From a virus (lineage: Duplodnaviria; Heunggongvirae; Uroviricota; Caudoviricetes), in IMG/VR virus record IMGVR_UViG_2923350032_000001, positions 1 through 64,000 of that record: 64,000 nucleotides of DNA. One strand, 5' to 3'. A model generated the notes under the pieces. It saw nothing but the letters and a program-made list of their open reading frames with translations. It had not been told where the DNA came from and did not search any database. Shown piece after piece: positions 1 to 40,477 of this stretch (positions are counted from its first letter, which is position 1; each line of letters begins with the position of its first letter). Position numbers and translations under genes: made by a program.

Positions 1-2302
1 TACTGGTAGGGTCAGGGAACCGTTGTTCCAGTTCTGAAAACTACTGTCATAAAGCCGCGTTTAGCTTCACCAGTAGCAGCATCAGTAAAGCCTCCATATA
101 CTCTGTATAACTCTTTTCTAACACCACATTTTTGGTGTTTTTGTCACCAAACAGCGTTATGGCATCAATAGTTGAGCGTTCCAGATCCCGGAAAGTGACG
201 ATATTACCGAAGGTTTTAGTAGCGTCATAAATGCGGTTGGTGCGGGAAAATGCCTGCATCAGGCCGTGAAAACGCAAGTTTTTATCGACGAATAGCGTGT
301 TCAATGTTGGTGCATCGAAGCCGGTTAAAAACATCCCCACGACAATTAGCAGATCGATATCCTGATTTTAACCCGCTGGGCTAAATCACGATAGTAGTTC
401 TGAAAACCGTTACTGTCGGTGCTAAAGTTAGTTTTAAAATGGCTGTTATATTCACGAATTGCAGCGTCCAGAAACTCTTTAGCACTGCTGTCCATTGCGC
501 TGGTATCAAAAGTTTCATCGGAAATTTCACCAATGGCATTTTGTTCTTCATTGGCGGCAAAGGAGAAGATTGTCGCAATACGCAGCGGTTTATAGGTAGC
601 CGATTTATTAGCGGCTTCTTCTTGTAACCGTTTAAACGTCGCATAATAGGTTTTCGCGGCATCCACGCTGCTCACTGCCAACATAGCATTAAAACCTTTT
701 GAGCCAGGGAAGGTACGGTGAGTTTTCTGGCGGAAATTATTCAGAATATATTGCGTGATTTCCTGAATACGCATGGGATGAAGAAACGCCTGCTGATTTT
801 CAGCCGCACTTAGTTTTTTCTCGTCAGTTTCTGTCTCTAAAGACTTAAATTGTGGCCGCACATCGTTGTAGTCTACCTTGAATTTGAGCACTTTTTCGTC
901 ACGAATCGCATCGGTAATTACATACGAATGCAATTCACGACCAAATACGCTGGCGGTTGTTTCTGAGCCTAAGGCGTTTTCCGGGAAAATAGGGGTACCG
1001 GTAAAACCAAACTGATAATAGCGTTTGAATTTCTTCTTCAGGTTTTTCTGCGCTTCTCCAAACTGGCTGCGGTGGCATTCATCAAATATAAACACCACTT
1101 GCTGATTGTATACAGGCAGGTCGCTTTCTGCTTTCATCAGGTTATTAAGTTTCTGAATAGTGGTGACGATAATTTGTTATCGTCCTTATCCAGATTTCGT
1201 TTAAGACCTGCGGTATTTTCCGAGCCGTTGACGCTGTCTGGCGAAAAACGCTGATATTCCTTCATGGTCTGGTAATCGAGGTCTTTCCTGTCGACCACGA
1301 AGAAGACTTTATCAATAAAGTCCAGTTCAGTTGCCAGACGCGCGGCTTTAAAGCTGGTCAGTGTTTTACCGGAACCGGTGGTGTGCCAGATAAAGCCACC
1401 GCTTTCCGGTTTTGACCAGTTCTTCGCTGTAAAGGAACTCTTAATTTTCCACAGAATGCGCTCGGTGGCGGCAATCTGGTACGGTCGCATCACCAGTAGC
1501 GTCTGACTACTGTCAAAAACGCTGTAGTTCACCAGAACATTCAGCAGAGTATGTTTCTGGAAAAAGTAGCGGTAAAGTCTTTGAGGTCTTTAATCAGCGT
1601 GTTGTCTGATTTCGCCCAGTTCATGGTGAAGTCAAAACTGTTTTTATCGCGCTTTGTCGTGTTGGCAAAATAACGGGTATCGGTGCCGTTAGAAATGACA
1701 AACAGTTGCAGATACTTAAACAGGGAATTTTCGCTGTTAAAACTCTCTTTACTGTAACGATGTATCTGGTTGAAAGCCTCACGAATCGCCACGCCGCGCT
1801 TTTTCAGTTCGATTTGCACCAGCGGCAAGCCATTAACCAGGATCGTGACGTCATAACGGTTAGCGTGAGAGCCTGCCTGTTCAAATTGCTGGATAATCTG
1901 CACCTTATTGCGCATGAGATTCTTTTTATCTATCAAATAGATGTTCTCAAGTCGCTCGTCATCAAAAATAAAGTCGCAAATATAGTCGATATGGATTTTA
2001 CGGGTCTTATCCAGAATGCCATCGCTCGGGTTGTCCAGATACTGCTCCGTGAAACGCCGCCATTCGCTGTCATTAAACACCACACCATTGAGGCTCTGAA
2101 GCTGTTCCCGAACATTGGCCAGCATCTCTGACTGAGATTTTACGGCTATAAATTCATAGCCCTGATTTTGCAGGTCCTGAATCAGTTCACGTTCCAGGTC
2201 CGATTCGCTCTGGTAGCTGTCGCCTGTTGGTTCAGCTTTGATGTACTTATCAAGAATGATAAAGTTATTGGATTCAGCAATGGTGTGTGTCTGATGAGTC
2301 AT
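1..2302 (-). pseudogene. hsdR: Type I restriction enzyme R subunit (HsdR), split into at least four frame-shifted pieces; C-terminal part runs off the window start
   Basis: Colinear minus-strand ORFs 1541-2302 (HsdR N-domain), 1137-1532 (helicase motif I TGSGKT), 346-1137 (motif II FDECH), 47-340 (motif [10 protein letters not shown]) lie in different frames. Confidence 0.6.
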
Positions 2303-2423
2303 AGCGCATCCTTTGTGCCGTTTGGCAAGGGCCGGAAGGGGGTTAATGGTGACTTCCAGCGTGTAAAAAATGGTCTATATACTGACCGGATGTTAAGGTG
2401 ATCCGGTCGGTAGCAATGGTCAA

Positions 2424-14178: not shown

Positions 14179-15210
14179 ATGTCCAATTTACTGACCGTAC
14201 ACCAAAATTTGCCTGCATTACCGGTCGATGCAACGAGTGATGAGGTTCGCAAGAACCTGATGGACATGTTCAGGGATCGCCAGGCGTTTTCTGAGCATAC
14301 CTGGAAAATGCTTCTGTCCGTTTGCCGGTCGTGGGCGGCATGGTGCAAGTTGAATAACCGGAAATGGTTTCCCGCAGAACCTGAAGATGTTCGCGATTAT
14401 CTTCTATATCTTCAGGCGCGCGGTCTGGCAGTAAAAACTATCCAGCAACATTTGGGCCAGCTAAACATGCTTCATCGTCGGTCCGGGCTGCCACGACCAA
14501 GTGACAGTAATGCTGTTTCACTGGTCATGCGACGGATCCGAAAAGAAAACGTTGATGCCGGTGAACGTGCAAAACAGGCTCTAGCGTTCGAACGCACTGA
14601 TTTCGACCAGGTTCGTTCACTCATGGAAAATAGCGATCGCTGCCAGGATATACGTAATCTGGCATTTCTGGGGATTGCTTATAACACCCTGTTACGTATA
14701 GCCGAAATTACCAGGATCAGGGTTAAAGATATCTCACGTACTGACGGTGGGAGAATGTTAATTCATATTGGCAGAACGAAAACGCTGGTTAGCACCGCAG
14801 GTGTAGAGAAGGCACTTAGCCTGGGGGTAACTAAACTGGTCGAGCGATGGATTTCCGTCTCTGGTGTAGCTGATGATCCGAATAACTACCTGTTTTGCCG
14901 GGTCAGAAAAAATGGTGTTGCCGCGCCATCTGCCACCAGCCAGCTATCAACTCGCGCCCTGGAAGGGATTTTTGAAGCAACTCATCGATTGATTTACGGC
15001 GCTAAGGATGACTCTGGTCAGAGATACCTGGCCTGGTCTGGACACAGTGCCCGTGTCGGAGCCGCGCGAGATATGGCCCGCGCCGGAGTTTCAATACCGG
15101 AGATCATGCAAGCTGGTGGCTGGACCAACGTAAATATTGTCATGAACTATATCCGTAACCTGGATAGTGAAACAGGGGCAATGGTGCGCCTGCTGGAAGA
15201 TGGCGATTAG
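14179..15210 (+). CDS. cre: Cre site-specific tyrosine recombinase
   Basis: 343-aa ORF MSNLLTVHQNLPALPVDATSDEVRKNLMDMFRDRQAFSEHTWK... matches remembered P1 Cre. Confidence 0.98.
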   Translation: MSNLLTVHQNLPALPVDATSDEVRKNLMDMFRDRQAFSEHTWKMLLSVCRSWAAWCKLNNRKWFPAEPEDVRDYLLYLQARGLAVKTIQQHLGQLNMLHRRSGLPRPSDSNAVSLVMRRIRKENVDAGERAKQALAFERTDFDQVRSLMENSDRCQDIRNLAFLGIAYNTLLRIAEITRIRVKDISRTDGGRMLIHIGRTKTLVSTAGVEKALSLGVTKLVERWISVSGVADDPNNYLFCRVRKNGVAAPSATSQLSTRALEGIFEATHRLIYGAKDDSGQRYLAWSGHSARVGAARDMARAGVSIPEIMQAGGWTNVNIVMNYIRNLDSETGAMVRLLEDGD

Positions 15211-15260: not shown

Positions 15261-15572
15261 ATGAGAAAGGATTTCAACATCGACGGAAAATATGTAGTGC
15301 TGTCTGTAAGCACTAATATTCAGTCGCCAGCCGTCATTGTCACTGTAAAGCTGAGCGATAGAATGCCTGATATTGATTCAATATCCATTGCGTTCCCTGT
15401 CAAAAGTATGCGTGGTGCTGAACATTTCGTGATGAATGCCACCGAGGAAGAAGCACGGCGCGGTTTTGCTAAAGTGATGTCTGAGTTTGGCGAATTTTTG
15501 GGGCACGTTGACAAAGCCCTTTCAATCAGTTCAGCAAGATCCAAAGCGTTAACAGCTTCCATGATGAAATAA
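15261..15572 (+). CDS. cra: Hypothetical protein in the P1 cra position
   Basis: 103-aa ORF between cre and ref, preceded by an operator-like site; a mirror ORF on the other strand was rejected. Confidence 0.45.
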   Translation: MRKDFNIDGKYVVLSVSTNIQSPAVIVTVKLSDRMPDIDSISIAFPVKSMRGAEHFVMNATEEEARRGFAKVMSEFGEFLGHVDKALSISSARSKALTASMMK

Positions 15573-15704: not shown

Positions 15705-15721
15705 ATTGCTCTAATTGATTG
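15705..15721 (+). promoter_or_regulatory. C1 operator upstream of ref
   Basis: ATTGCTCTAATTGATTG about 100 bp upstream of the ref start. Confidence 0.6.
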
Positions 15722-15820: not shown

Positions 15821-16396
15821 ATGAAAACAATCGAACAAAAAATTGAACAGTGCCGCAAGTGGCAGAAGGCAGCCAGAGAACGAGCGATCGCTCGGCAACG
15901 GGAGAAGTTGGCTGATCCGGTCTGGCGAGAATCTCAATATCAGAAAATGCGGGATACTATCGACCGCCGTATCGCTAAACAGAAAGAGCGCCCACCAGCC
16001 AGCAAAACGCGGAAAAGTGCGGTAAAAATAAAATCTCGTGGCTTGAAGGGACGAACACCGACGGCAGAGGAACGGCACATAGCCAATGCTCTTGGCGCTC
16101 TCCCCTGCATTGCGTGCTATATGCATGGAGTAATATCTGAAGAGGTGTCTCTGCACCATATTTCCGGTCGTACCGCGCCTGGTTGTCACAAAAAGCAATT
16201 GCCACTTTGTAGATGGCACCACCAGCATGCAGCACCGGCTGAAGTAAGAGCAAAATACCCCTGGCTGGTCCCTGTTCATGCCGATGGTGTGGTTGGAGGC
16301 AAGAAAGAATTCACCCTGCTGAACAAGTCAGAGATGGAGTTACTGGCTGACGCCTATGAGGGGTCGTCTCAGAAAACGGAAAATAAAGCACGCTAA
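15821..16396 (+). CDS. ref: Ref, recombination enhancement function (HNH endonuclease), 3' end replaced by transposon sequence
   Basis: 191-aa [29 protein letters not shown]... with Cys/His HNH motifs; the last 11 codons and stop lie inside the Tn21-family inverted repeat. Confidence 0.85.
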
Positions 16397-16397
16397 G
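16360..16397. repeat. Tn21-family 38-bp terminal inverted repeat
   Basis: GGGGTCGTCTCAGAAAACGGAAAATAAAGCACGCTAAG. Confidence 0.85.
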
Positions 16398-19359
16398 CCG
16401 GTTGCAGAGGCCGTAGCGGCCTGAACTTCCCCGCGCCGATCTTGGCGCTGCTGCGCCATAGGTAATCACCGGTCAGGTTGATGTGCTCCCAGCCGAGTGG
16501 CGACAGGTACTGCAATAGCGAGTCATCGACGGCATGACCATTGCCGCGCAACGCATGCGCCGCACGCTCCAGGTAGACCGTGTTCCACAGCACGATGGCC
16601 GCCGTCACCAGGTTGAGGCCGCTGGCCCGGTAGCGCTGCTGCTCGAAACTGCGGTCACGGATTTCACCAAGGCGGTTGAAGAACACGGCACGGGCCAGCG
16701 CATTGCGCGCCTCGCCCTTGTTCAGCCCGGCATGCACGCGGCGGCGTAGCTCGACGCTTTGCAGCCAGTCGAGGATGAACAGCGTGCGCTCGATGCGGCC
16801 CAACTCGCGCAGCGCGACGGCCAAGCCGTTCTGGCGCGGGTAGCTGCCGAGTTTCCTGAGCATCAGCGAGGCCGTCACCGTGCCCTGCTTGATCGAGGTG
16901 GCCAGCCGCAGGATTTCGTCCCAATGGGCGCGGACGTGCTTGATGTTGAGCGTGCCGCCGATCATCGGCTTGAGCGCGTCATAGGCGGCATCGCCCTTCG
17001 GGATGTAGAGCTTGGTGTCGCCCAGGTCGCGGATGCGCGGCGCGAAGCGGAAGCCCAAGAGGTGCATCAGGGCGAAGACGTGATCGGTGAAGCCCGCCGT
17101 GTCGGTGTAGTGCTCCTCGATCCGCAGGTCGGATTCGTGGTACAGCAGGCCGTCGAGCACGTAGGTTGAGTCGCGCAGGCCGACATTGACCACCTTGGTG
17201 TGGAATGGCGCGTATTGGTCGGAGATGTGGGTGTAGAAAGTCCGTCCTGGGCTGCTGCCATATTTTGGGTTGATGTGCCCCGTGCTCTTTGCCTTGCTAG
17301 CGGTTCGGAAATTCTGTCCGTCCGATGATGATGTGGTGCCATCGCCCCAGTGCCCGGCAAAGGGATGCCGAAACTGAGCGTTGACCAGTTCAGCCAACGC
17401 TGTCGAGTACGTTTCGTCGCGGGTATGCCAGGCTTGCAGCCAAGCGAGCTTCGCGTAGGTCGTGCCGGGGCAGGACTCGGCCATCTTGGTCAGGCCCAGG
17501 TTGATCGCGTCGGCCAGGATCGTGGTCAACAACAGGTTCTTGTCCTTGGCCAGATCGCCCGATTTCAAGTGCGTGAAGTGCCGGGTGAAGCCCGTCCACT
17601 CATCGACTTCGAGCAGCAGTTCGGTGATCTTGACGTGCGGCAGGACCATGGCTGTCTGGTCTATCAGCGCCTGCGCGGTGTCGGGCACCGCCGCATCCAG
17701 CGGCGTGATCTTCAAGCCCGACTCGGTGATGATGGCATCCGGCAGGTCGTTGGCTGCCGCCATGCGGTTGACGGTGGCAAGTTGTGCTTCCAGCAGCGTC
17801 AGCCGCTCATGCAGATATTGTTCGCAGTCGGTGGCCACGGCCAGCGGCAATTCGCTGGACTGCTTGAGGCTGGTGAACTTCTCGGGCGGTACCAGGTAGT
17901 CCTCGAAGTCCTTGAACTGGCGTGAACCCTGCACCCAGATGTCGCCCGAGCGCAGGGAGTTCTTCAACTCGGACAGCGCGCACAGTTCGTAGTAGCGCCG
18001 GTCGATGCCGGCGTCGGTCATCACCAGTTTCTGCCAGCGCGGCTTGATGAAGCCGGTCGGTGCATCGGCTGGCAGCTTGCGGGCGTTGTCGGTGTTCATG
18101 CCGCGCAGCACCTCAATGGCATCAAGCACGTTTTTGGCGGCGGGCGCGGCCCGCAGCTTGAGCACGGCAAGGAATTCCGGTGCATAGCGGCGCAGGGTGG
18201 CGTAGCTCTCGCCGATGCGATGCAGGAAATCGAAGTCATCGGGTTGCGCGAGCTTCTGCGCCTCGGTGACGCTCTCGGCAAAGGAATCCCAGGACATGAC
18301 GGCCTCGATGGCGGCAAACGCATCGCGGCCTGATTGCTTGGCGTCGATCAGCGCCTGACCGATGCGCCCGTACAGACGTACCTTGGCGTTGATGGCCTTG
18401 CCTGACGCCTGGAACTGCTGCTGATGCTTATTCTTGGCAGCGTTAAACAGCTTACCCAGGATGCGGTCGTGCAGGTCGATGATTTCGTCGGTGACGGTGG
18501 CCATGCCCTCGGTGGCCAGCGCCACGAGAGTGGCGTAGCGCCGTTGCGGCTCGAATTTGGCCAGGTCGGCGGGTGTCATCTGGCCGCCCTCGCGGGCAAT
18601 CTTGAGCAGGCGGTTCTGGTGAACCAGCCGCTCGATGCCGGTAGGCAGATCGAGTGCCTGCCATGCCTTGAGGCGTTCGATGTGTTCCAGCATATGCCGC
18701 GAATTTGGCTTGGCCGGAGACTGGCGCAACCAAGCCAACCAGGTCGTCTTGCCGTTGTCCCGGCGCTTGAGCAGATCGTCGAGGCGGCGGCGATGCGCGT
18801 CCGCCAGTGGTTCGGCCAAGGCGTCGTAGATGCGCCGGTTAGCACGGGTGATCGCCTCTGCACTCGCCCGCTCGACGGCGTTGAGGGCGGGCAGAATGAC
18901 CGACTGCCGCCGCAGGTGCCCGATCAAGGCGCTGGCCAGCACGATGCCTTTGTCGGTTTGCATCGCCAGCTCGGTCAGCATCTGGACGGCCTGCCGGTAA
19001 TGGCTCATGGTGAAGGGCCGGAAACCGAACACGGTTTGCAGCTCGCTCAGGTGCTCGCGCCGGGTCTGCTCCCGCTGGCCGTACTCGTTCCAGCTTTCGA
19101 CGCCGACCTTGAGCTGGTCGGCGACCAGCTTCAACAAGGGCGGGAACGGTAGTTCATCGACGCCCAGGATGACGCCGGGAAAGCGCAGGTAACAGAGCTG
19201 CACCGCGAAGCCCAGCCGATTGGCTGGCCCGCGCCGCTGTCGGATGATCGAGAGGTCGGTATCGTTGAATGTGTAATGTCGGATCAGGTCGTCCTTGGAG
19301 TCCGGCAACGCCAGCAGGCTTTCCCGCTCGGCGGCGGACAGGATGGAACGACGTGGCAT
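16393..19359 (-). CDS. tnpA: Tn3-family transposase TnpA (Tn21-like)
   Basis: 988-aa [34 protein letters not shown]... Confidence 0.95.
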
Positions 19360-19361
19360 AT

Positions 19362-19922
19362 TTACTGATCCGTTCTCAAGTATTGATACAGGGTTTCGCG
19401 ACTGATTCCGAATTCACGAGCAAGCTTGGTCTTTTGCTCGCCAGCCTCGATACGTTGGCGCAGTTCGGCAATACGCTCAGACGACAGGGATTTCTTCCTG
19501 CCACGGTAAGCCCCGCGTTGCTTGGCGAGCGCAATACCCTCGCGCTGACGCTCGCGGATCAGGGCGCGCTCGAACTCGGCGAACGCGCCCATCACCGAGA
19601 GCATCAGGTTCGCCATCGGAGAGTCTTCGCCAGTAAAACTGAGGTGTTCCTTGACGAATTCGATATGCACGCCGCGTTGTGTCAGCGTTTGCACGATCCG
19701 GCGCAAATCATCGAGATTGCGCGCCAGGCGATCCATGCTATGCACCACCACGGTGTCGCCGGTGCGGGCGAAGCTTATCAGCGCTTCCAGTTGCGGACGC
19801 TTGACATCCTTGCCGGATGCCTTGTCGCTAAAAGCGCGATCAACCTTGACGCCTTCCAGTTGCCGTTCCGGGTTCTGGTCGAAGGTGCTGACCCTGATAT
19901 ACCCAATGCGCTGTCCAGTCAT
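19362..19922 (-). CDS. tnpR: Serine resolvase TnpR (Tn21-like)
   Basis: 186-aa [24 protein letters not shown]... with C-terminal HTH. Confidence 0.95.
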
Positions 19923-20060
19923 GGAATTCCCTGCAAAATGTCAGGGAAGACTCTATGACCTTCAACGAGATATGTCAATAAATTCAAAATTCAATCCTAT
20001 CCTGACGCAATTTACACATGGCATCTGACATCAGGTTAGGGTATGCCTCAACCTGACGGC
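19923..20060. other. res: Probable res (resolution) site of the Tn21-family element
   Basis: Located immediately upstream of tnpR with TGTCA-type subsites. Confidence 0.45.
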
Positions 20061-20154
20061 GGCGAATCACAAGCGTCCGGTTTGACGCTGGTTTCGGTCG
20101 CAGTGCTGGCCCGCGCCTGGAAGCGCTGATAGCACTCCAGCCCGCAGAAATGCT

Positions 20155-20432
20155 GGCACTGTTGCAAATAGTCGGTGGTGATAAACTTATCATCCCCTTT
20201 TGCTGATGGAGCTGCACATGAACCCATTCAAAGGCCGGCATTTTCAGCGTGACATCATTCTGTGGGCCGTACGCTGGTACTGCAAATACGGCATCAGTTA
20301 CCGTGAGCTGCAGGAGATGCTGGCTGAACGCGGAGTGAATGTCGATCACTCCACGATTTACCGCTGGGTTCAGCGTTATGCGCCTGAAATGGAAAAACGG
20401 CTGCGCTGGTACTGGCGTAACCCTTCCGATCT
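20155..20432 (+). mobile_element. Truncated IS26 (first 278 bp: IR plus 5' part of tnpA)
   Basis: 14-bp IR GGCACTGTTGCAAA at 20155-20168; tnpA N-terminal 72 codons identical to the complete copy, then abrupt junction. Confidence 0.9.
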
Positions 20433-21252
20433 GGCACTGTTGCAAAGTTAGCGATGAGGCAGCCTTTTGTCTTATTCAAAGGCCTTACATTTCAAAAACT
20501 CTGCTTACCAGGCGCATTTCGCCCAGGGGATCACCATAATAAAATGCTGAGGCCTGGCCTTTGCGTAGTGCACGCATCACCTCAATACCTTTGATGGTGG
20601 CGTAAGCCGTCTTCATGGATTTAAATCCCAGCGTGGCGTTGATTATCCGTTTCAGTTTGCCATGATCGCATTCAATCACGTTGTTCCGGTACTTAATCTG
20701 TCGGTGTTCAACGTCAGACGGGCACCGGCCTTCGCGTTTGAGCAGAGCAAGCGCGCGACCATAGGCGGGCGCTTTATCCGTGTTGATGAATCGTGGGATC
20801 TGCCACTTCTTCACGTTGTTGAGGATTTTACCCAGAAACCGGTATGCAGCTTTGCTGTTACGACGGGAGGAGAGATAAAAATCGACAGTGCGGCCCCGGC
20901 TGTCGACGGCCCGGTACAGATACGCCCAGCGGCCATTGACCTTCACGTAGGTTTCATCCATGTGCCACGGGCAAAGATCGGAAGGGTTACGCCAGTACCA
21001 GCGCAGCCGTTTTTCCATTTCAGGCGCATAACGCTGAACCCAGCGGTAAATCGTGGAGTGATCGACATTCACTCCGCGTTCAGCCAGCATCTCCTGCAGC
21101 TCACGGTAACTGATGCCGTATTTGCAGTACCAGCGTACGGCCCACAGAATGATGTCACGCTGAAAATGCCGGCCTTTGAATGGGTTCATGTGCAGCTCCA
21201 TCAGCAAAAGGGGATGATAAGTTTATCACCACCGACTATTTGCAACAGTGCC
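20433..21252 (-). mobile_element. Complete IS26 (820 bp, IS6 family)
   Basis: 14-bp IRs at 20433-20446 and 21239-21252; internal 234-codon transposase. Confidence 0.95.
20485..21189 (-). CDS. tnpA: IS26 transposase
   Basis: [34 protein letters not shown]... 234 aa; the ORF-track N-terminal extension MLMELH is rejected. Confidence 0.95.
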   Translation of the reverse strand: MNPFKGRHFQRDIILWAVRWYCKYGISYRELQEMLAERGVNVDHSTIYRWVQRYAPEMEKRLRWYWRNPSDLCPWHMDETYVKVNGRWAYLYRAVDSRGRTVDFYLSSRRNSKAAYRFLGKILNNVKKWQIPRFINTDKAPAYGRALALLKREGRCPSDVEHRQIKYRNNVIECDHGKLKRIINATLGFKSMKTAYATIKGIEVMRALRKGQASAFYYGDPLGEMRLVSRVFEM

Positions 21253-21266
21253 CCATATCAGCCCCC

Positions 21267-21857
<591 letters not shown>

Positions 21858-21963
21858 TTAACTGATTCTACGAGATGTCATTTGTCCATTGTGCCAACTG
21901 TTATTATGGATATCGTAATTCGTACGAATCGCGCTGTTACAGGATGTATAGCAACCTTAATAA

Positions 21964-39332: not shown

Positions 39333-39618
39333 GATGTGTGCTGGAGGGATGATGCAGGACCAGAATGTGCGATAGAGGGAAGTCGCATTGAATTATGTGT
39401 TGTGGAGGGATCGCTTGTATCAAATATGTGTGCTGGAGGGAAAGACAGAGAATTACATGTGCACTGGAGGGAAAAACGGATGGACAGATGTGTGCTGGAG
39501 GGAAAGTCTGAGCAAACTGCGGGGCGTCCCCCTCCAGCGCACATCAAAAACGGGAAATTGGACAAGCCTTCCCGGCAGCACACATTTTTTGAATGCAGCT
39601 GCCCTCCAGCACACACTT
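39333..39618. repeat. incA: incA: about nine 19-bp RepA-binding iterons (copy-number control)
   Basis: Repeats of GATGTGTGCTGGAGGGAAA and its complement in both orientations. Confidence 0.85.
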
Positions 39619-40477
39619 ATTCGGGGAGTTTCAGCTTTGGATTGCGAGAATGGACGATTACAAAACTTTCCCGGCCTTTCTTCTCAATTGAACAGTCGAG
39701 ATAGCCGATTGTTTTAAGCTGTTCTATCGCTTTCTTAATGATACGGTTTTGCTCGCCAACAGCTGACTGCAAAGCCAGGCGCTCACGGATTCGGGCGAAA
39801 GATAGCGGCAACGGATTCTGCGGAAGGCTTTCGATGAAAGTGTAAATGGCTTGTGCAGCTTCTTTCTTCGGAAGGGCACGCAAGGCGTGGTGTTGCAACA
39901 GAACGCGATAATCAAGCTGGAACAGCTCCCACAGCTTCGAATCAGCCTCCAGCTCTATCAGATCAAGGTCAGCATCAAAACGACCGACCTTTAGCAGACC
40001 AGTCTGATAGCCGCCTTTAGCATCTTTTCCGCGCTTAAAAGCGATACCCTTGTTACGTAAGCGTCCAAGTGATTCATGAATGGTTAAACGCAGTTTCGCA
40101 TCCAGACGTTTTGAGGGGAAACCACAGGCTTTAGCGAATTCCTGAAACGATAACTGGATGGTGTTTGAGGACAAGCCGTATTTGCTGAACGCGTAGATGA
40201 CACCGATCCACGTTTTGAAATCAGTATCCATATCGAGTCGAGGACCGGTGATTTTAATATCATCGTAACCCTCGGCTTTAGCTATCTCCAGCTGGGAAAA
40301 CGCTTTGGTGGCATCAATCTCTTTACTTTCTCCTTTGCTCTTTGATGGCTTCGGCACGAATACCCCCAAGCGCATCAACGCTACAGGCTGCACAGTGTTG
40401 TTTGAATTAACTGTTAGTTCTTTTGCCTTACTTTCAATGTCTGCGTAAAGAATATCGGAGATAAATGATTGATTCAT
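39617..40477 (-). CDS. repA: Plasmid replication initiator RepA
   Basis: 286-aa ORF MNQSFISDILYADIESKAKELTVNSNNT... matches remembered P1 RepA; flanked by incA and incC iterons. Confidence 0.95.
   Translation of the reverse strand: MNQSFISDILYADIESKAKELTVNSNNTVQPVALMRLGVFVPKPSKSKGESKEIDATKAFSQLEIAKAEGYDDIKITGPRLDMDTDFKTWIGVIYAFSKYGLSSNTIQLSFQEFAKACGFPSKRLDAKLRLTIHESLGRLRNKGIAFKRGKDAKGGYQTGLLKVGRFDADLDLIELEADSKLWELFQLDYRVLLQHHALRALPKKEAAQAIYTFIESLPQNPLPLSFARIRERLALQSAVGEQNRIIKKAIEQLKTIGYLDCSIEKKGRESFVIVHSRNPKLKLPE

Follow-up and report, generated by a model that had tools for sequence, protein, structure and literature searches.

The last codons of ref in a P1-type phage-plasmid are supplied by a Tn21 terminal repeat, at a site shared with other Tn3-family insertions

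The ref gene carried on the 64,000-nt stretch of viral DNA considered here (the window; positions 1 to 64,000 of IMG/VR record IMGVR_UViG_2923350032_000001) does not end in its own sequence, but in the terminal inverted repeat (IR) of a Tn21 transposon, which provides its final 11 codons and its stop. Tn21 is a mercury- and antibiotic-resistance transposon. The whole account favored below, to which we give a probability of about 0.93 with its inferred parts included, is that Tn21 transposed into ref in an ancestral phage-plasmid, and that IS26-linked events later removed the far end of the transposon together with a large part of the P1-type backbone.

A preliminary description of the sequence placed the start of a Tn21-type IR at position 16360, inside the ref reading frame, and had the IR encode the last 11 codons and TAA stop of a 191-aa open reading frame (ORF). 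Direct reading of the sequence and of its frame agrees with this to the base (Table 1). The 38-bp repeat, GGGGTCGTCTCAGAAAACGGAAAATAAAGCACGCTAAG, occurs once in the 64-kb window by motif search, with 0 chance copies expected in shuffled sequence, and is identical at 38 of 38 positions to the tnpA-side IR of Tn21 from plasmid R100 (NR1). A full-text literature search with the IR sequence returned no paper, and the Tn21 identity was accordingly established against R100. The junction falls within ref codon 180 (GAG, 16358-16360), whose third base is the first base of the IR; codons 181-191 (16361-16393) and the TAA (16394-16396) lie wholly within the repeat. On the opposite strand, tnpA also ends within the IR, at a TAG (complement of 16393-16395), so that the stop codons of the two genes overlap on opposite strands. 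P1 Ref is exactly 186 aa, the length given in the preliminary description, and ends ...AYE-MANIMH; in the 191-aa window Ref, eleven IR-encoded residues replace MANIMH. The native C-terminus therefore differs from the one encoded here, in line with the earlier claim that it had been replaced.

The upstream neighbors of ref are of P1 type, with cre at 14179-15210 and c8 at 15261-15572. The C1 operator Oref and the ref promoters are also upstream of the gene and are unaffected by the insertion. Terminator and hairpin scans found no terminator-like or hairpin signal at the ref/IR junction.

Table 1. Features around the ref/Tn21 junction and the adjoining IS26 and backbone boundaries (window coordinates).
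Feature	Position	Strand	Basis
Oref, C1 repressor operator of ref, ATTGCTCTAATTGATTG	15705..15721	+	P1 annotation (P1 1962-1978) transferred by window/P1 alignment, and direct reading
Chimeric ref ORF, 191 codons plus TAA	15821..16396	+	ORF list; residues 1-180 are Ref, residues 181-191 and stop are Tn21 IR
TATGA, left copy of 5-bp target-site duplication	16355..16359	.	Equals P1 2611-2615; repeated outside the mer-side IR in CP100027.1 and pL9-1
38-bp Tn21 terminal IR, tnpA side	16360..16397	+	Exact match, unique in window
tnpA, Tn21 transposase, 988 aa, convergent with ref	16393..19359	-	ORF; Pfam DDE_Tnp_Tn3 and DUF4158; 988/988 identical to R100 TnpA
tnpR, Tn21 resolvase, 186 aa	19362..19922	-	Pfam Resolvase and HTH_7; 185/186 identical to R100 TnpR (V158I)
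Tn21 res region (by position only) and tnpM 3' remnant	19923..20154	-	Collinear with R100 to 15936 and with pL9-1 to 24095
IS26 left-end fragment, 278 bp, cutting off Tn21	20155..20432	+	Begins GGCACTGTTGCAAA; 100% match to sibling IS26 copies
Complete IS26, 820 bp, inverted relative to the fragment	20433..21252	-	Both 14-bp ends read; transposase ORF 20485-21207; blastn to IS26
P1-type backbone restart, first tub codons, then pmgC (21267-21833)	21253..21891	-	blastn to P1, at about P1 45,995

The assignment to a Tn21-family end holds well beyond the IR: the 3.8 kb from 16360 to 20154 are 99.947% identical to R100 Tn21, with 2 mismatches in 3,795 bp. The IR and TnpA are identical to those of R100, and TnpR differs at a single residue, but the window keeps only the tnpA-tnpR-res/tnpM end of the element. 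Homology to Tn21 stops inside tnpM, exactly where the IS26 fragment starts, and neither the mer operon nor class 1 integron cargo is present in the window. A second, mer-side IR is likewise absent from the 64 kb, even when 3 mismatches are allowed in the conserved 28-bp core. As read from the window, this is a one-ended Tn21 remnant, unable to transpose as a unit.

Related plasmids supply the other end. The same ref/IR junction is found in three complete plasmids: p204A1-114K (CP100027.1, IncY), pL9-1 (NZ_CP142045.1), and pEC85-4-128k (NZ_CP158185.1). In CP100027.1, the element order is tnpA-tnpR-tnpM-IS26 ... merEDACPTR, followed by the mer-side IR, and the right junction (boundaries marked by slashes) reads ...GAGGTGCCCCC/TATGA/GATGGCAAACATCATGCACTAA, followed by mat. 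GATGGCAAACATCATGCACTAA corresponds to the six ref codons and stop that are missing from the window. The right junction of pL9-1 is the same, at 100% identity over 501 bp. As in R100 Tn21, the element in these siblings has its mer operon and mer-side IR, carries an integron in the Tn21 position, and is flanked by a 5-bp duplication, which for the R100 copy itself is TATTA. The preliminary description expected a 5-bp target duplication at the missing other end, and in the sibling plasmids it is there, as TATGA; the window has no second TATGA flank and no ref 3' remnant. With the other transposon end, the second TATGA, and the ref tail, the siblings show that Tn21 transposed in with a 5-bp TATGA duplication. 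The argument for transposition into ref is thus one drawn from the sibling plasmids, the window by itself holding one IR and one TATGA.

The event can be reconstructed as follows. Tn21 entered an ancestral P1/P7-type (IncY) phage-plasmid by Tn3-family replicative transposition, between the equivalents of P1 positions 2615 and 2616, 21 bp before the ref stop, with duplication of TATGA. The tnpA-side IR arrived in frame with ref, allowing translation to continue for 34 bases into the IR and to end at a TAA in its conserved inner motif, ACGCTAAG, which also holds the opposite-strand tnpA stop.

It is very unlikely that the junction was instead made by IS26-mediated or illegitimate recombination bringing a Tn21 fragment to ref. 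The presence of only one transposon end in the window, the strong IS26 remodeling, and the position of IS26 within Tn21, which differs from sibling to sibling, could be read in that way, but the junction falls exactly at base 1 of the IR, and the siblings have both IRs and a perfect 5-bp direct repeat in an otherwise unbroken ref, which is the signature of transposition. That Ref occurs naturally with this 191-aa ending, its likeness to the IR being incidental, as its plain NCBI label of “Ref family protein” might suggest, is next to impossible, given that the 38 bp are those of the Tn21 IR and run on into Tn21 itself, that Ref ends in a MANIMH-like sequence in P1 and in 71 of 72 contigs surveyed, and that the displaced native tail sits across the transposon in the siblings.

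Transposition of Tn21 into ref seems to have happened once in this lineage. Over 20.2 kb, pL9-1 and the window are 99.975% identical, so the junction in the window was inherited rather than newly formed. Thirty contigs on record carry the exact 191-aa chimera; this count is from exact protein look-ups, which were used in place of a homology census of Ref tails because clustering at 90% merges tail variants. The chimera-bearing contigs examined share the junction but differ beyond it in their integron cassette arrays or IS26 cuts, pointing to one ancestral insertion followed by diversification. The junction is present in 2 of 5,426 complete E. coli genomes, about 490 of which hold a P1-type pmgC. 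Many members of the Tn21 lineage exceed 114 kb.

The window itself is a much reduced member. Its other Tn21 end is missing because of IS26 truncation and a large loss of backbone: blastn and boundary reading place the gap between ref and the backbone restart at P1 2616-45,995, and 18 P1 proteins from mat to tub (mat, res, lxc, darB, prt, pro, lyz, ssb, ddrB, darA, lydA, S, R, 16, bplA, sit, pmgB, and tub) gave no tblastn match in the window. Genes for virion morphogenesis and lysis are among those without a match. The same search did find cre, ref, and pmgC, with Cre 99.7% and the pmgC product 97% identical to their P1 counterparts. The c1, cre/lox, pacAB, par/rep, and phd-doc modules are collinear with those of P1/P7-type plasmids, and ParA and ParB were identified. 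The last 3.2 kb and the first base of the window map 749 bp apart on pL9-1, which suggests a circle of about 64.7 kb; the source was probably a defective P1-derived plasmid of ~65 kb, which would form no virions. The IS26/tub junction has no record in PLSDB or among the complete E. coli genomes. The IS26 fragment and the complete IS26 lie head-to-head, an arrangement typical of IS26-into-IS26 or intramolecular IS26 events. At some point after the insertion, IS26 cut Tn21 off inside tnpM, and it now adjoins the first tub codons. Gone from the window are the integron and mer operon, the IR and the TATGA copy on the mer side, what remained of the ref 3' end, and all the genes tested from mat through tub; IS26-mediated deletion or rearrangement probably removed them.

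At the protein level, residues 1-180 of the window Ref are 95-97% identical to P1 and P7 Ref. Pfam domain PF16786 (RecA_dep_nuc) is matched over residues 80-180 (E = 6e-49), and the structure of P1 Ref, a RecA-dependent HNH endonuclease (PDB 3PLW), matches residues 1-181. The residues invariant in an alignment of the Ref family (C99, H112, H113, C130, H133, H134, and H153) are all present. The domain and its Cys/His residues are therefore shared with P1 Ref, the last six residues of which are absent, and the chimera should keep a catalytic HNH core, as the preliminary description proposed. Its picture of a simple exchange of tails beyond that core is less secure. The core is intact, but the junction lies within a predicted C-terminal helix, and conserved hydrophobic positions are lost. 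In an AlphaFold model built from 42 sequences (mean pLDDT 90), helix 171-190 spans the junction, with a pLDDT of 98 for residues 171-180 and 82 for residues 181-190. Of 41 homologs, 38 have a hydrophobic residue at position 181, nearly all have Ala or Ile at 182, and positions 184-185 are often hydrophobic; where these have hydrophobic-Ala-x-hydrophobic-hydrophobic, the chimera has G-S-S-Q-K, and the native end of the helix is gone.

Because the junction removes conserved hydrophobic residues from inside this helix, the activity of the chimeric Ref is uncertain and could be anywhere from normal to impaired; we would give roughly even odds to an active and to an impaired protein. A stronger reading, that the chimera is destabilized or inactive and that the insertion in effect knocks ref down instead of harmlessly changing its tail, deserves consideration but stands somewhat short of even odds. 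The replaced pattern at 181-185 and the helix across the junction speak for it, as does a natural parallel: P7 Ref has ~30 extra C-terminal residues, and Gruber et al. (2015; PMC4330346) report the reconstructed protein to be insoluble. In P7 ref (locus L001, 2078-2728), this extension arises because translation reads on into the Tn3 IR and the antisense strand of tnpA. On the other side, no catalytic or metal-binding residue has been lost and the Pfam domain is complete, the new tail is a short, polar one that the model still shows as helix (pLDDT about 82), and some natural homologs stop just 2-4 residues past position 180. GenBank ties the P7 extension to Tn3, a link that does not appear in the available passages of Gruber et al. 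(2015; PMC4330346).

P7 is one of several replicons in which a Tn3-family element has inserted at the end of ref. In the window lineage, the tnpA end of Tn21 faces ref at the junction TATGA/GGGGTCG, with a 5-bp duplication (TATGA). In P7 (ref::Tn3, Tn2/Tn902; AF503408), the tnpA end of a Tn3-family transposon likewise lies in the last ref codons and gives Ref a foreign C-terminus, described in the record as a “C-terminal region of 36 aa extended ... at Tn3 insertion,” as compared with 11 aa added in the window. The P7 junction is TGAAA/GGGGTCTG, 2 bp downstream, with a 5-bp duplication (TGAAA) that shares 3 bp with the TATGA of the window. P7 differs further in its transposon, in the reading frame of the IR, and in having both transposon ends intact.

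In Salmonella phage SJ46 / P1-CTX, another Tn21-subgroup element, Tn1721-blaCTX-M-27, has inserted at this TATGA, in the ref-mat interval, and fusion of its IR to Ref gives a protein of 193 aa. The junction is TATGAA/GGGGGAACC. In contrast to the window, the element is of Tn1721 type, complete, and in the opposite orientation, with the non-tnpA end facing ref and tnpA facing mat, and the duplication is 6 bp (TATGAA); Yang 2017 (PMC5241659) gives it as TATGA, and a 2024 paper gives TATGAA for the SJ46-type insertion. Phages of this type are reported to be inducible and transducing (PMC11117986).

The same Tn1721-type IR as in SJ46 is found in pPSJ-07_1 (NZ_AP027620.1; locus L009, 7300-7337), at TATGA/GGGGGAACC, where it abuts exactly the same base as in the window and yields a Ref of 191 aa; the other end has been lost to IS26. 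Relative to SJ46 (locus L082) there is a 1-bp frame shift, and the Ref tails read GEPQNSEKIVR (191 aa) in pPSJ-07_1 and GGTAEFGKNRTLS (193 aa) in SJ46. This is possibly a fourth capture: it could be either a separate insertion or a 1-bp change from SJ46. Tn21, Tn1721, and Tn3 make at least three independent insertions by members of the Tn3 family, all within 2 bp and with both orientations represented.

Wider surveys added little to this list. In IMG/VR, the ref end is native in 71 of the 72 contigs that carry the gene, and the remaining one is SJ46-type. A scan of metagenomes for any GGGG-type IR at the ref site returned nothing real, the two matches being unrelated chance ones. Members of Ref clusters with odd lengths were considered as further Tn3-family fusions and rejected, having alternative starts or other disruptions instead; elements of other kinds do disrupt ref, at other positions. 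A fixed orientation of insertion at the site was also rejected, since the Tn1721 of SJ46 runs in the opposite direction.

Nor is the site exclusive for Tn21, which is also found in c8 of three P1 records from Spanish infant gut (MH422554.1, MH445380.1, and MH445381.1; loci L096-L098). There the tnpA-side IR follows ...AAAGCGTTAA/GGGG, at GTTAA and 20 bp short of the c8 stop (equivalent to window 15552/15553), and marks an independent insertion; it too is near the 3' end of a gene. An apparent sharing of the ref flank with Salmonella IncF plasmids was rejected: the match continues for 16 bp past the IR, but in a different gene with only a loose likeness (...CTCAATGA/GGGG). In pST1007-1A (Salmonella IncF; locus L005, 3018-3055), for example, the Tn21 tnpA-side IR comes after ...GCCTCAATGA, loosely like the ref flank ...CGCCTATGA, and it is because of this resemblance that megablast alignments ran 16 bp past the IR in ~10 Salmonella and E. 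coli plasmids. The likeness of the pST1007-1A flank is probably a matter of chance together with a preference for ATGA-like targets.

As to why these elements should meet at one point, 12 bp separate the insertion site from the C1 operator Omat (P1 2628-2645) downstream of it, and the Pfam domain of Ref ends at residue 180. The mat operator stays with mat in the intact siblings, 12 bp past the insertion point, and insertions at the site would leave the controls of both neighboring genes intact. For the insertions ascertained so far, which are an incomplete set, clustering appears to be far above the expectation of a uniform model, and the site seems to be favored by Tn3-family elements: an AT-rich pentamer with GC-rich flanks, between the Ref fold and the mat operator.

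One explanation, to which we would give nearly an even chance, is intrinsic target choice by Tn3-family elements, which could recognize the AT-rich pentamer in GCC-TATGA-GATGGC, possibly as DNA bent by repressor at the mat operator. Ref is dispensable for P1, and selection alone would allow insertions anywhere in ref; no Tn3-family insertion was seen elsewhere in the gene. Three elements in both orientations have produced the duplications TATGA, TATGA(A), and TGAAA, and other Tn21 and Tn1721 duplications are also AT-rich pentamers: TATTA (R100), TATAT (PMC11117986), and, inferred from one junction read, AATGA in the Salmonella IncF plasmid. Against target choice, three P1 records have the same Tn21 end at GTTAA, close to the c8 stop, and P1-type replicons have been surveyed only in part for Tn3-family junctions.

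A second explanation, possible but with the odds clearly against it, is survivorship: the elements may land widely, with only the ~12-bp gap between the Ref fold and the mat operator and promoters being tolerated. The position of the site, downstream of the end of the Pfam domain and upstream of Omat and the mat promoters, is as expected on this account; P7, a described phage, has its insertion there, and the SJ46 type, reported to be inducible and transducing (PMC11117986), can be added to it. However, the insertions fall within 2 bp, more tightly than the permissive gap would demand, and since many members of the Tn21 lineage are above 114 kb and the window is without morphogenesis genes, phage viability is not obviously under selection.

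Target choice can be put in a more specific form, which is offered tentatively and with the balance leaning against it: in P1-type phage-plasmids, the TATGA(R)A heptamer in the terminal part of ref may act as a hotspot that Tn3-family transposases recognize by sequence or by structure. If so, it would be the main doorway for Tn3-family resistance transposons into transducing phage, and each capture would rewrite the Ref C-terminus according to reading frame.

Parts of this are known already. The annotation of P7 describes a new Ref C-terminus provided by a Tn3-family IR, and Tn1721 at TATGA between ref and mat has been published. [quoted passage not shown]

There are some practical consequences. 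The exact 191-aa Ref chimera can serve as a lineage marker for Tn21-bearing P1-type plasmids, which occur in dozens of human and poultry E. coli assemblies. “Ref family protein” entries of 191, 193, or 216 aa are to be taken for IR fusions, and the “extra” insoluble C-terminal residues of P7 Ref as transposon read-through rather than natural variation. If insertion is indeed targeted, the site could be monitored or tested as an entry point for resistance genes into transducing phage.

Elsewhere in the window, a 286-aa ORF (39617-40477) was considered as blaTEM, and the 37-50 kb region as a second resistance region; the ORF has no NCBIfam match and its neighbors are P1-type backbone, and the idea was dropped. 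The type I restriction gene hsdR (1-2305, minus strand) appears to be interrupted, with only ORFs 1541-2302 and 346-1137 in place of the intact 1038-aa hsdR of pL9-1, despite 99.975% DNA identity to that plasmid; the break marks either a pseudogene or a sequencing error. An IS200/IS605-family TnpB of 391 aa (RNA-guided endonuclease family; 47665-48840, plus strand) lies next to dmt in the P1-type backbone. The Dmt-like double DNA methyltransferase ORF itself (44259-47300, plus strand; 1013 aa) has matches to Hint_2 (residues 77-126), LAGLIDADG_3 (298-361), and intein C-terminal splicing (398-419), all ahead of its best C5-methylase match (533-666) and its Dam match (752-985), and looks like a methylase gene of a P1-type plasmid containing a LAGLIDADG intein.
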